The translations under genes and the position numbers were made by a program. From Patescibacteria group bacterium (lineage in GTDB: Bacteria; Patescibacteriota; Patescibacteriia; XYB2-FULL-38-15), in contig JBAZJZ010000001.1 of the NCBI GenBank assembly GCA_041650995.1, positions 7,891 to 71,890 on the forward strand: a DNA stretch of 64,000 nucleotides, read 5' to 3'. A model generated the notes under the pieces. That model saw nothing but the letters and a program-made list of their open reading frames with translations, was not told where the DNA came from and did no database searches. This document shows positions 26,110-35,552 of this stretch, one piece after another (positions within the stretch are counted from its first letter, which is position 1; every line of letters begins with the position of its first letter).

Positions 26110-26150
26110 ATTGTAATCGAGTAAATGGTAAATAGTAATTGGTAATTGAT
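26110..26150. repeat. GGTAA heptad-repeat block
   Basis: ttgtaat|cgagtaa|atggtaa|atagtaa|ttggtaa|ttg, lying between the epimerase and GT2 genes. Confidence 0.75.
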
Positions 26151-26822
26151 ATTTTTATGAAAACAATTGCGGTAATTCCCGCCTATAATGAAGAAAGAAC
26201 GATTGCCGACGTCGTGATGGAAGTGCAGAAATATGTCACAGAGGTTGTAGTGGTTGATGACGGATCGGCCGATCATACCATAGAACACGCTAGAAGAGCG
26301 GGCGCGGTTGTTTATTCTCATTTTTTAAATCGCGGTCAGGGCGCGGCTCTTGAAACCGGAAAAAAAATCGCACTTTTACGCCAAGCCGATGTTATTGTGA
26401 CTTATGACGCGGACGGTCAATTTGTCGCCGAAGAAATAATTAACGTCGTAAGGCCGGTCGCCGAGGGGCGGGCTGATGTTGTTTTGGGAGCTCGTTTTGG
26501 GAAATCGGAAATTCCATCGGTTAAGAAGTTTTTCTTAAGGGGTGCCACGGTTTTTACCAGATTAACTTCCGGATTGAAATTATCGGACACGCATAATGGG
26601 TTTAGGGCTTTTTCCCGCGAAGCGGCAGAAAAAATTACGATCGAACAAAATCGCATGGCTCATGCCTCGGAAATTTTAGAAAAAATCGGCCGGCACAGTT
26701 TGCGCTACGAAGAAGTCCCGGTAACGGTTAAATATTTTTCACCAGAGATTCGTCGCGGTCAGCACCTGCCAGATTATTTAAAAATTTTATTTGATTTATT
26801 TTTAGGAAAAAATATAAAGTAA
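26139..26822 (+). CDS. glycosyltransferase family 2, polyprenyl-phosphate sugar synthase-like (DPM1/GtrB-like)
   Basis: IAVIPAYNEERTIADVV...VVVDDGSADHT is typical of GT2_DPM-like enzymes, and a DAD motif is present (TYDADGQF). The length is 227 aa. It is followed immediately by a small 4-TM-like membrane protein. Confidence 0.75.
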   Translation: MVIDIFMKTIAVIPAYNEERTIADVVMEVQKYVTEVVVVDDGSADHTIEHARRAGAVVYSHFLNRGQGAALETGKKIALLRQADVIVTYDADGQFVAEEIINVVRPVAEGRADVVLGARFGKSEIPSVKKFFLRGATVFTRLTSGLKLSDTHNGFRAFSREAAEKITIEQNRMAHASEILEKIGRHSLRYEEVPVTVKYFSPEIRRGQHLPDYLKILFDLFLGKNIK

Positions 26823-26829
26823 TTTTTGT

Positions 26830-33915: not shown

Positions 33916-33923
33916 ATTTATTT

Positions 33924-35552
33924 ATGTATTCTATCATAAAATGGATAAAGGGAAATAGGGCGGAAACGGCGTTGATTTTTTTTGCCGTTATTTTTTTCTT
34001 TATTTATTCATGGTTTTATTTGGGAACAGCGGTCGAAACGGCAAAATTTAATTCGCCGGACGAGGCGGCTAATTATTTTTTTATAAAAAATTACGTTTCA
34101 GAGGGGTCGCTTAAAATTTTTGAGCCGTTGAACCTTACAACTGGAGGAATTATCCATCCGCGGAGCATTACGACAGTAGGCGGATATCTTGTGCCAGGGA
34201 GTTTTTTGGGGTTAATTTTGATTTATGGATGGCTGGCGAAGATTTTTACGCTGGGCGTAATTTGGTGGCTTACGCCGTTTTTTGCCCTTGCGGCAGTTTT
34301 GTTTTTTTATGGAATTATAAAAAATATTTTTGATCGGCGGATTGCTCTTTGGTCATCCTTTTTGCTTTTGGTCCATCCGGCTTTTTGGTATTATGCGAGC
34401 CGAGGTCTTTTTCCAAATATTTTATTTATTTCGCTTTTGCTTGCGGGATTTTATTTTTTAGTGGGACATAAGAAATCAAAAGCGTGGGTATTAAATTATC
34501 TAGATTATATTTTGGCTGGTTTATTTTTTGGGTTAGCGCTGACCGTGCGGTTGTCGGAAATAATTTGGGTTGGCGCCGCGCTTCTTTTACTATTTTTAAT
34601 TTATAGAAAAAATGTAAAATGGTTCGAATTGATTATTTTTATTTTCTCCGCTGGCGTAGCTTTTGTTCCAGTATTTCTTTATAACAGGACGATTTACGGC
34701 GACCCGCTTACCACCGCCTATAATTTGGGTGGGGAGAGCGCCGCAGCGGGCGAGGTGGCGTGGCATGTTTCAGCAGGAAAATTTATTTTTCCCTTTGGCC
34801 TTGAAATAAAAAATGTTTTGAATAATTTTTCCACATATTTTGTTGGGATGTTTTGGTGGTTTGTAGTTCCTGCGACTTTTGGCACCGTAGTTTTTATAAA
34901 AAAATTGATTGCTGGTAAATTAGATAAGAAAATTATAACTTATTTATCCATCGGCGGATTTATTTCTTTGTTTTTATTTTTGTATTATGGCAGTTGGGTT
35001 TTTTATGACAATCCGGCCAAAGAAGCGTCAATCGGAACTTCTTACGTGCGTTATTGGCTGCCGATTTATATTTTGTCATTGCCGCTCGTCGCGTTTACTC
35101 TCATAAAATTAGTTGATTTTATTCGTCCCCTAAAAGAAAAGATTTTCGCCGGCGTTCTTTGTTTAATTTTTATTCTCTTCGGGATGAAACTTACTTTTTT
35201 TGATAAAAATGACGGTTTGGCTTATGTTTATAAAAACGTGCATGATTACGCCATGATTGCCAAAGAAGTTAATTTACTCGTTCCATCCGAGGCAGTGATT
35301 ATTGTTGACCGCGGTGATAAAATATTTTTTCCCGAGCACAGGGTTGTCTCGCCGTTTCGTGAAGAAAGTACTTATGCGGCAATCCCAAAACTTGCGAAAA
35401 CTTTACCGCTTTATTATTACGGCCTGCCGCTCACCGAAAAAGAAATGGATTATCTTTATGATGACGGGAGGATTAATGGGGAAGAGATAAAAATAATTGA
35501 AATAAAAAATTTTGGAGCGGAGACGCTTTATCAATTGGAATATTTAAAATAG
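33924..35552 (+). CDS. polytopic membrane protein (542 aa), ArnT/PMT-like GT-C glycosyltransferase (GT39/GT83-like)
   Basis: It has an N-terminal TM helix, then an extracytoplasmic loop (KFNSPDEAANYFFIKNY) resembling the first periplasmic loop of PMT/ArnT-family enzymes. There are more than 10 TM helices. Confidence 0.45.
   Translation: MYSIIKWIKGNRAETALIFFAVIFFFIYSWFYLGTAVETAKFNSPDEAANYFFIKNYVSEGSLKIFEPLNLTTGGIIHPRSITTVGGYLVPGSFLGLILIYGWLAKIFTLGVIWWLTPFFALAAVLFFYGIIKNIFDRRIALWSSFLLLVHPAFWYYASRGLFPNILFISLLLAGFYFLVGHKKSKAWVLNYLDYILAGLFFGLALTVRLSEIIWVGAALLLLFLIYRKNVKWFELIIFIFSAGVAFVPVFLYNRTIYGDPLTTAYNLGGESAAAGEVAWHVSAGKFIFPFGLEIKNVLNNFSTYFVGMFWWFVVPATFGTVVFIKKLIAGKLDKKIITYLSIGGFISLFLFLYYGSWVFYDNPAKEASIGTSYVRYWLPIYILSLPLVAFTLIKLVDFIRPLKEKIFAGVLCLIFILFGMKLTFFDKNDGLAYVYKNVHDYAMIAKEVNLLVPSEAVIIVDRGDKIFFPEHRVVSPFREESTYAAIPKLAKTLPLYYYGLPLTEKEMDYLYDDGRINGEEIKIIEIKNFGAETLYQLEYLK

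Follow-up and report, generated by a model that had tools for sequence, protein, structure and literature searches.

A conserved Patescibacteria gene cluster predicted to glycosylate a cell-envelope component at the outer face of the membrane

Introduction

The closest described relatives of the system reported here make a polyprenyl-phosphate sugar with a short family 2 glycosyltransferase (GT2) and a small membrane partner of the DUF2304 family. The DUF2304 protein GacJ forms a complex with the GT2 enzyme GacI and boosts synthesis of N-acetylglucosamine (GlcNAc)-P-undecaprenol (10.1101/180810), and Rv3632, also of DUF2304, has the same activating role toward PpgS (10.1101/180810; PMC3485146). 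A polytopic GT-C glycosyltransferase (GacL in the streptococcal system, Rv3779 in the mycobacterial one) then moves the sugar onto a wall polysaccharide, rhamnan in the first case and arabinogalactan in the second (10.1101/180810; PMC3485146). In the candidate phyla radiation (CPR, or Patescibacteria) the building of the envelope is largely unknown, according to a 2017 genome study (PMC5220378). Here we analyze a 64-kb window (the whole stretch of DNA under study) from a Patescibacteria metagenome-assembled genome and describe in it a gene cluster that joins a GT2-DUF2304 pair (GT2a and a 119-residue protein) to a UDP-glucuronate decarboxylase/UDP-xylose synthase (UXS) homologue, a second GT2 (GT2b), two family 4 glycosyltransferases (GT4a and GT4b), two large polytopic GT-C-like proteins (M710 and M542), and a single-pass membrane protein (P197). 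A literature search found no paper describing this cluster in CPR.

The logic of such a pathway is already known from GacI/GacJ/GacL, PpgS/Rv3632/Rv3779, and the Arn pathway. What is new is the strict conservation of the cluster over a large CPR clade, a GT-C family (M710) that has no Pfam or NCBIfam model and has an added bundle of N-terminal helices and a motif set of its own, the coupling to UXS, which points to a pentose donor, and the conserved partner P197. On the evidence below, the locus probably encodes a pathway, conserved in Patescibacteria, for glycosylating a component of the cell envelope at the outer face of the membrane, with a non-protein glycopolymer as the likeliest acceptor. 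The general mechanism, a lipid-linked donor used by GT-Cs at the outer face, is the part that we hold with high confidence.

Results

Conservation of the cluster across Patescibacteria

The open reading frames (ORFs) of the window were listed, and their products were scanned against Pfam and NCBIfam. A scan of GTDB revealed relatives of M710 in 519 species genomes, and synteny was read from the best 80 of these 519 loci, onto which the window proteins were mapped by tblastn with neighbor counts adjusted to the length of flank that each locus offers (Table 1); counts for the Fic and FdtA-like proteins were taken over 82 loci. All of the best 80 loci that bear a lineage name belong to CPR (Falkow-, Buchanan-, Uhr-, Komeili-, and Magasanikbacteria and Parcubacteria). 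Gene order and strands are kept down to ~33% identity, as S8-UXS-GT2a-DUF2304-GT2b-GT4a-GT4b, M710 on the opposite strand, and M542-P197...HIT-RmlB...RmlD-RmlA-PEGA. M542 lies upstream of and divergent from M710 in 59 of the 59 loci that have M542, and M710 and GT4b converge in 53 of 54 loci, an arrangement that is far beyond chance. The HIT protein and, at the cluster's head, the S8 protease, which stays beside UXS even in distant lineages, are conserved neighbors of the cluster, and the PEGA protein is its conserved far border.

Within the window, the genes from S8 through GT4b are separated by gaps of 3–29 bases or by the 4-base overlap of the GT4b start with the GT4a end (the DUF2304 gene starts 8 bases past the GT2a stop codon), a spacing that is consistent with a single operon. 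The start codons of M710 and M542 are divergent and only 8 bases apart. An earlier reading of this DNA (the original prediction) had described a GT2, a 119-residue multi-pass protein, a second GT2, two GT4s, and two large polytopic proteins in that order; all of these genes are present at the coordinates it gave, with the families it predicted, and it had missed that M710 is on the minus strand and that a Fic cassette intervenes between GT4b and M710.

The cluster can also be split or enlarged. Some lineages keep S8-UXS-GT2a-DUF2304 with no GT-Cs nearby, and in three relatives (L084, L085, and L088) the S8-UXS genes keep a GT2-DUF2304 pair though the rest of the cluster lies elsewhere. Three other loci (L001, L040, and L045) hold extra GT-C genes between HIT and P197/M542, encoding AftA_N-like proteins of 552–571 residues and, in L001, a DUF6311 protein, and they also hold an RmlC-like cupin. 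The window has neither these additional GT-Cs nor the RmlC-like cupin, so the make-up of the locus is modular from one lineage to another. The S8-UXS block adjoins type IV pilus genes in L084 and L087.

A predicted donor module of UXS, GT2a, and a DUF2304 protein

The short-chain dehydrogenase/reductase (SDR) encoded upstream of GT2a is clearly a UXS homologue by sequence (215 bits and E 1e-62 against human UXS1 structures in the PDB, with the next class at 115 bits) and is a probable supplier of a UDP-pentose. The best NCBIfam model for GT2a is PpgS (NF058614), matched over the full length at 178.5 bits against an equivalog cut-off of 370, so the N-acetylgalactosamine specificity of that model is not transferable and the sugar is not assignable by homology. 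The sole PDB relatives of GT2a are the dolichol-phosphate mannose synthase of Pyrococcus and ArnC, and the protein has the motifs VVVDDGS and DAD (90–92) of a GT-A fold GT2 with a DXD motif. From these matches GT2a is predicted to be a polyprenyl-phosphate sugar synthase of the GacI/PpgS/DPM1/ArnC class.

The original prediction left the 119-residue protein between a GtrA-like and a DUF2304-like identity. It matches DUF2304 far above the cut-off (Table 1), and the accompanying idea of a flippase role falls, because two proteins of this family, GacJ and Rv3632, act as activators of the GT2 enzymes they accompany; by family and by analogy, this protein is the GacJ/Rv3632-type activator partner of GT2a. 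A Pfam scan of the window ORFs found no GtrA (PF04138), Wzx, or ArnE/F flippase, and GtrA-like genes occur near the cluster in two relatives (L002 and L088). The UXS gene adjoins GT2a, from which we infer that the donor sugar is a pentose derived from UDP-glucuronate (UDP-GlcA), as in the Arn pathway; this adjacency and the Arn analogy suggest such a donor and do not fix it. In the distant relative L088, genes for a UDP-glucose dehydrogenase, a UXS-like SDR, a second SDR, and the GT2-DUF2304 pair stand in one block.

M710 represents a predicted GT-C family without a database model

M710 is annotated by NCBI as "hypothetical protein WC445_00155" (100% identical), and searches with it gave no Pfam or NCBIfam match and no credible PDB sequence or profile match. 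Its family, taken as 45 members, matched no GT-C family of Pfam at E ≤ 1 and gave a few weak matches that are scattered and unrelated. The AlphaFold 2 (AF2) model of M710 (pLDDT 89, pTM 0.92) was compared with known structures by Foldseek, where the top eight matches are all GT-C proteins (STT3, PglB, AglB, and AftA) with a probability of 0.99–1.0 and TM-scores of 0.32–0.42, and the ranks after these are transporters with a probability of at most 0.14. An hhalign comparison of the M710 and M542 families aligned residues 232–566 with 89–431 (82% probability, E 1e-5, 320 columns).

By these comparisons, M710 has about six extra N-terminal helices, a GT-C core that begins at about residue 188, and a C-terminal soluble domain at ~570–710. 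The motif GYGFDPFIH...E contains three residues (Asp-217, His-221, and Glu-225) that are invariant in 45 sequences and that lie in a loop (210–258) following the helix aligned as the first transmembrane helix of the core, with short Lys/Arg-rich loops on the opposite side. On this topology all three would lie in the core's first outer loop, where they are candidate catalytic residues. Further conserved motifs are PQGLAN, IHPLAG, and YEQ..R. Searched with a profile of the family, 1.84 billion cluster representatives yield 1,629 matches at E ≤ 1e-3 and 1,048 at E ≤ 1e-30; the count barely rises with the relaxed threshold, and the family is therefore isolated at the sequence level. Judged from sequence and model together, M710 appears to found an isolated GT-C family for which Pfam and NCBIfam have no model.

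Two more specific identities for M710 were rejected. The protein does not look like a canonical oligosaccharyltransferase (OST), as the WWDXG motif is found in 0 of 45 homologues and there is no STT3 (PF02516) match at E ≤ 1. Its N-terminal extension is also not recognizable as a fused GtrA- or DUF2304-like module, with hhalign probabilities of 1.8% and 0.4%, respectively.

M542 is a predicted ArnT/PMT_2-like transferase

M542 scores 26.0 bits against PMT_2 (PF13231), immediately below the gathering cut-off of 26.1, and 32 of 45 homologues match this family at E ≤ 0.01 (best 1e-11). M542 itself has no match to PF02366, the GT39 protein O-mannosyltransferase (PMT) model, which just one of the 45 homologues matches. 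Foldseek with the AF2 model (pLDDT 92) returned GT-C proteins as all of the top 32 PDB matches, the first being ArnT (5ezm; E 1.6e-7, TM-score 0.51). The first loop of M542 reads FNSPDEAANYFF; in the 45 homologues Pro-45 and Asp-46 are invariant, Glu-47 is at least 90% conserved, and the triplet PDE is present in 43, which bears out the earlier proposal of an ArnT/PMT-like first loop. The modeled topology would put Asp-46 on the outer face as a candidate catalytic residue, and the protein also has a C-terminal soluble domain. From profile and fold, M542 is predicted to be an ArnT/PMT_2-like GT-C transferase.

The claim that both large proteins are GT-C-like thus holds, each matching only GT-C structures with high probability, and whole-Pfam scans gave neither of them a YfhO or DUF2079 match. 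P197, encoded 3' of M542, has no Pfam or NCBIfam match, and a PDB sequence search with it returned spurious helicase matches only; it is a possible accessory subunit.

Cytoplasmic glycosyltransferases and sugar supply

For GT2b, GT4a, and GT4b, searches of the PDB and NCBIfam gave generic matches only, from which no sugar or acceptor is assignable. The best NCBIfam match of GT2b is a weak one to rhamnosyltransferases (55 bits), and it is predicted to be a glycan-building transferase at the cytoplasmic face. The PDB matches of GT4a are generic and BshA/PimA-like (PimA 67 bits), and in the PDB and NCBIfam it resembles PimA and glycolipid-anchor GT4 enzymes. The dTDP-sugar genes and UXS-like enzyme that had been expected nearby are present (RmlB, an FdtA-like cupin, RmlD, RmlA, and UXS), and the RmlD-like and RmlA-like proteins are predicted to supply a dTDP-6-deoxyhexose. 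By tblastn, the FdtA-like protein was found in only 7 of the 82 loci, and most relatives carry an RmlC-like cupin elsewhere in the locus.

Two other GT4 genes of the window, at 2270–3451 and 55902–57044, bear on DUF1972, which we take to be the N-terminal domain of RgpA/GacB-type rhamnosyltransferases: the first matches it at 26.7 bits (cut-off 25) and the second, below the cut-off, at 22.9 bits. The pair hints that the organism builds a rhamnose-containing polymer.

Comparison with described systems

The GacI/GacJ/GacL system of Streptococcus pyogenes, which adds GlcNAc side chains to the Group A carbohydrate rhamnan, shares with the cluster a short GT2 followed by a DUF2304 partner of ~115 residues and three helices, an outer GT-C that uses a polyprenyl-phosphate sugar, and linkage to dTDP-rhamnose-type genes and rhamnosyltransferase-like cytoplasmic glycosyltransferases. 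Unlike that system, the window has no GacK-type Wzx flippase, GacD/E ATP-binding cassette (ABC) exporter, or GacO-type initiator; it has two GT-Cs, one from a family without a model, rather than one; it comes from a CPR organism; and it has a UXS gene attached, which makes GlcNAc an improbable sugar. The PpgS/Rv3632/Rv3779 system of Mycobacterium tuberculosis (galactosamine on arabinogalactan) likewise has a DUF2304 partner and a final GT-C, and PpgS is the best NCBIfam model for GT2a, although at 178 bits against the 370-bit cut-off. The arrangement also differs, for here the GT-Cs are clustered with the synthase, whereas M. tuberculosis Rv3779 is encoded far from Rv3631/Rv3632, as their gene numbering shows.

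With the Arn pathway (ArnA/ArnC/ArnE-F/ArnT), which places 4-amino-4-deoxy-L-arabinose on lipid A, the cluster has in common a UDP-glucuronate decarboxylase, an ArnC-class GT2, an ArnT-like GT-C, and thereby a putative pentose-type donor from UDP-GlcA. In contrast to that pathway, the window has no ArnB aminotransferase, formyltransferase, deformylase (ArnD), or ArnE/F, its decarboxylase is of the UXS rather than the ArnA type, and no lipid A genes were seen in it. CPR bacteria examined so far are reported to be without lipid A and lipopolysaccharide pathways (PMC5220378).

The original prediction had likened the locus to GtrABC and protein O-mannosylation systems. The likeness holds for the lipid-P-sugar synthase, the small membrane accessory protein, and the outer-face GT-Cs, but it fails for the GtrA flippase, and GacI/J/L, PpgS/Rv3632/Rv3779, and Arn are closer. 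Similarly, GtrA/GtrB/GtrC and CsbB/GtcA/YfhO pair a polyprenyl-phosphate sugar synthase with an outer-face polytopic transferase, whereas here no GtrA/GtcA flippase (PF04138) is found in the window, the small protein is a DUF2304-type putative activator, and neither large protein matches YfhO or DUF2079. M710 resembles STT3, PglB, and AglB in fold and in having a polytopic GT-C core followed by an outer-face C-terminal soluble domain; it differs from them in lacking WWDXG and an STT3 HMM match, in TM-scores of only ~0.4, in its ~6 added N-terminal helices, and in its motif set. Finally, the assembly of lipomannan/lipoarabinomannan (LM/LAM) and arabinan in mycobacteria (PimA/PimB, Ppm1, PimE, Mpt, Emb, and Aft) offers a parallel in its inner-face GT4s, a polyprenyl-phosphate sugar synthase, several outer GT-Cs, and no Wzx/Wzy or ABC machinery, and homologous loci from other lineages of CPR include genes for AftA_N-like GT-Cs. 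The parallel is not backed by orthology at the sequence level, and the PimA match of GT4a is a generic one.

The acceptor

We lean, by a small measure, toward a non-protein target, either a wall polysaccharide or a membrane-anchored lipoglycan, and judge a protein target rather unlikely. A polymer is favored because two characterized GT2-DUF2304 systems, GacI/J and PpgS/Rv3632, decorate wall polysaccharides; because the rml genes are tightly linked to the cluster; because related loci hold several GT-Cs, a feature also of arabinan and LAM assembly in mycobacteria; because the GT4 proteins resemble PimA and glycolipid-anchor enzymes; because genes for MurA, MraY, FtsW, and MurG lie nearby; and because the Thr/Ser-rich proteins encoded upstream are not conserved neighbors.

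Several observations weigh against a polymer acceptor fed by this donor module. Except for MraY, the 64-kb window has no initiating phosphoglycosyltransferase, and it has no flippase, ABC exporter, polymerase, or LCP-type ligase; the pathway to a wall polymer is thus not shown to be complete. A protein acceptor would suit PMT_2-family enzymes and the resemblance of M710 to OST folds equally well, and the surface proteins S8 and PEGA border the cluster consistently. GT2a falls below the PpgS equivalog cut-off, and its sugar specificity is accordingly not fixed by homology. Six of the 80 species loci (L011, L015, L031, L035, L038, and L044) keep GT2b, both GT4s, and both GT-Cs without a local GT2a-DUF2304 pair; the link between the donor synthase and M542/M710 is therefore not obligatory.

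The strongest competitor is the protein O-glycosylation originally proposed, in which the GT2a/DUF2304 donor is used by M542, and perhaps M710, on Ser/Thr residues of secreted proteins, with the Thr/Ser-rich Ig-domain proteins, the S8 protease, and type IV pilins as candidate targets. M542 does resemble PMT_2 and has a DE-type loop 1 motif like that of protein O-mannosyltransferases, and NCBI labels its close relatives "glycosyltransferase family 39 protein"; but the near absence of PF02366 matches among its homologues and a best fold match to ArnT, a lipid-modifying enzyme, point the other way. The lack of polysaccharide export or ligation genes in the window would suit a protein target, as would the S8 and PEGA surface proteins that border the cluster in many lineages, the type IV pilus genes beside the S8-UXS module in L084 and L087, and the secreted proteins of roughly doubled Thr+Ser content encoded upstream in this lineage and in L083. 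Against this, the two characterized GT2-DUF2304 systems named above target polysaccharides, and three extra cytoplasmic glycosyltransferases, the rml genes, and the extra GT-Cs of related loci exceed the simple need of such a route.

The substrates proposed for it fare less well. The description of five extremely Thr/Ser-rich secreted proteins immediately upstream is correct in that five such proteins exist, carry signal peptides, and are enriched; "extremely" overstates a Thr+Ser content of 21.6–24.6% against ~10% in other proteins (roughly twofold), and they are not immediately upstream, because S8 and UXS lie between. The enrichment is spread through the Ig-like domains with short STPAG runs only and no long low-complexity linkers, so that the proteins are not mucin-like. 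To see whether the adjacency is kept, the 10 kb upstream of S8 homologues were compared at several identity levels. The 84%-identical relative L083 has the same Big-domain genes there, with a similar enrichment; the 63%-identical L086 has one protein of 2,509 residues without a Pfam match; and four ~46%-identical relatives (L084, L085, L087, and L088) have unrelated housekeeping genes, although L085 encodes a giant Big_1 protein downstream of DUF2304. Big-domain genes upstream of S8 are thus confined to close relatives, and the adjacency is lineage-specific and lends no support to a conserved enzyme-substrate relationship: the Thr/Ser-rich proteins are candidate substrates only, and their link to the cluster is not supported. 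Nor does the notion of an S-layer-like glycoprotein locus find backing, since Pfam shows no SLH or S-layer domain and no Wzy_C-type O-oligosaccharyltransferase in the window, the upstream proteins matching Big_1, Big_5, and Invasin_D3 only. Overall we regard protein O-glycosylation as unlikely.

Far less probable still is an archaeal-style route, in which GT2a starts a glycan on polyprenyl monophosphate in the manner of AglJ, GT2b, GT4a, and GT4b extend it, M710 transfers it en bloc, and M542 adds the last sugar as AglS does. Such a route would account for the lack of a phosphoglycosyltransferase in the locus, and it can call on AglJ as the second NCBIfam match of GT2a (98 bits), on a weak AglG match of GT2b (38 bits), and on STT3, PglB, and AglB as the best fold matches of M710. 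All of these NCBIfam matches are, however, far below their cut-offs; M710 has neither WWDXG nor an STT3 Pfam match; its TM-scores to OSTs are just 0.36–0.42 and those of M542 to the same kinds of protein reach 0.55, so OST matches are generic for GT-C; and in some lineages GT2a-DUF2304 is missing while the rest of the cluster is kept. A transporter identity for M710 and M542, which would have refuted the original prediction, was rejected, having only low-probability fold matches and one profile match at E = 0.18 to commend it.

Gene map and neighboring features

Table 1. Features of the window in and around the cluster, with the loci in which each protein is encoded near M710. Counts are over loci with enough flank, except for Fic, which is over the loci compared.
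Feature	Position	Strand	Basis	Loci
Five secreted Thr/Ser-enriched Ig-like proteins (Big_1/Big_5/Invasin_D3)	6195–22735	+	Pfam	
S8 subtilase, secreted, with FG-GAP repeats	22823–25051	+	Pfam Peptidase_S8, 170 bits, plus FG-GAP	24/49 (next to UXS)
UXS homologue (SDR; UDP-glucuronate decarboxylase/UDP-xylose synthase)	25078–26109	+	Human UXS1, 215 bits	31/49 (on the GT4 side)
GT2a, 227 residues, short soluble GT2	26139–26822	+	Pfam PF00535 Glycos_transf_2, 74 bits	26/49
DUF2304 protein, 119 residues	26830–27189	+	PF10066, 82 bits (cut-off 25.5); three hydrophobic helices	28/49
GT2b, GT2 with C-terminal hydrophobic segment	27201–28259	+	Pfam GT2 families	31/49
GT4a, cytoplasmic GT4 (GT-B type)	28263–29474	+	Pfam Glycos_transf_1, 135 bits	38/49
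GT4b, cytoplasmic GT4	29471–30670	+	Pfam Glycos_transf_1, 91 bits	38/49
Fic/DOC protein	30751–31428	-	NCBIfam "mobile mystery protein B," 62 bits	0/82
M710, 710 residues, polytopic, predicted GT-C fold	31783–33915	-	AF2 model and Foldseek	
M542, 542 residues, polytopic, predicted ArnT/PMT_2-like GT-C	33924–35552	+	PMT_2 (PF13231), 26.0 bits; AF2 and Foldseek	53/64
P197, single-pass membrane protein with extracytoplasmic domain	35556–36149	+	Conserved position 3' of M542	39/64 (despite low sequence conservation)
HIT-family protein	36348–36758	+	Pfam HIT, 105 bits	37/55
RmlB (dTDP-glucose 4,6-dehydratase; start 36773) and FdtA-like cupin (start 37790)	36773–38203	+	Pfam	39/55 (RmlB)
RmlD-like reductase	start 39263	+	Pfam RmlD_sub_bind, 261 bits	28/55
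Long-form RmlA-like nucleotidyltransferase	start 40131, to 41201	+	NTP_transferase, 167 bits	26/55
PEGA-domain membrane/surface protein	41273–42427	-	Pfam PEGA	22/55

Between GT4b and M710 lies a two-gene minus-strand cassette (30751–31636, GC 33%) that consists of a 66-residue ORF (31436–31636) followed by the Fic/DOC gene, with a promoter-like site at 31684–31656 and a bidirectional terminator at 31719–31764. We rejected Fic as a part of the system, as the cassette is absent from 82 of 82 related loci, including loci that are 87% identical, and has its own promoter-like site, small upstream ORF, and terminator. It looks like a lineage-specific insertion, and the site itself looks like an insertion hot spot, the close relative L083 having a different gene, of 99 residues, at this position.

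A second irregularity lies between the FdtA-like gene and RmlD, where a 195-residue ORF (38532–39119, plus strand) without a Pfam match has a GC content of 62.8% against 41.8% for the window, terminator-like hairpins on its flanks, and a 63-residue ORF (38216–38405) upstream. Another public sequencing run has a 1.4-kb contig on which the product of the 195-residue ORF is called as well. The region 38216–39200 probably represents an assembly chimera or DNA gained by horizontal transfer. A minus-strand ORF across it (38205–39149) was dismissed as a gene, having no Pfam match in a place that the GC-rich plus-strand ORF occupies instead, and Rfam showed nothing relevant in the window or in the 38150–39300 gap.

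The genes for the Ig-like proteins are interrupted by an IS200-like Y1 transposase gene (10103–10789), a TPR gene, and a fragment of DUF559 (Vsr-like endonuclease; 14082–14333); the transposase gene and the DUF559 fragment suggest that the region is rearrangement-prone. Two paralogous pairs are found among these proteins (14910–17663 with 17833–20670, and 12306–13994 with 20852–22735), of which one has the common N terminus MAEKIKKGFFKVLPLSVVVFLVIG. Both pairs have conserved C-terminal domains of ~90 residues (for example K[IV][IV]DVPVVFW.DYTFG.DITTD.HPTG) without a Pfam match, which could be wall-binding or anchoring modules. The N-X-S/T sequons of the Thr/Ser-rich proteins number 60, against ~47 expected by a crude estimate, and were not used as evidence. 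On the 3' side of the cluster are genes for peptidoglycan synthesis (MurA, MraY, FtsW, MurG, and Mur ligases), and amid these a stand-alone GGDEF diguanylate cyclase gene (54927–55607, minus strand) adjoins a tRNA-Lys gene (55727–55801).

Discussion

The assignments above can be put together as a pathway at whose outer-face step a lipid-linked sugar is transferred to an envelope component. In the cytoplasm, the UXS homologue would convert UDP-glucuronate to a UDP-pentose. With its DUF2304 partner keeping it at the membrane and activating it, GT2a would load a sugar onto polyprenyl phosphate, as GacI/GacJ and PpgS/Rv3632 do, and the adjacency of UXS suggests that this sugar is a pentose. Meanwhile, GT2b, GT4a, and GT4b may build a glycan backbone at the inner face from a dTDP-6-deoxyhexose, made by the linked rml genes, and from other nucleotide sugars. 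The lipid intermediates would be flipped by a flippase encoded outside the window, and at the outer face M542 and M710, between which we infer a division of labor, would transfer the lipid-linked sugar to the acceptor, probably together with P197. The family and fold assignments and the synteny, which sequence and models show, give this scheme concrete parts that are testable: the UXS-GT2-DUF2304 donor module and two GT-Cs with candidate catalytic residues (Asp-46 in M542; Asp-217, His-221, and Glu-225 in M710).

A bolder version of this pathway is that M710 is a CPR-specific GT-C family that works with M542 and P197 to build, from a polyprenyl-phosphate pentose, the chief glycoconjugate on the surface of a large clade of Patescibacteria (Falkow-, Buchanan-, Uhr-, Komeili-, and Magasanikbacteria). 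We put this forward as a speculation about which we are doubtful. If it were true, an extracytoplasmic assembly route of mycobacterial or archaeal style would operate in CPR, and the N-terminal module of M710 might supply the missing flippase or donor handling.

The M710 family, with ~1,600 representatives that now go under the name "hypothetical protein," could enter the family databases. The conservation of order and strand in 80 species genomes from several CPR lineages suggests that the product is not a variable antigen but a core glycoconjugate of the surface, and, given that these bacteria live attached to hosts, the glycans they display are likely to be important in attachment.

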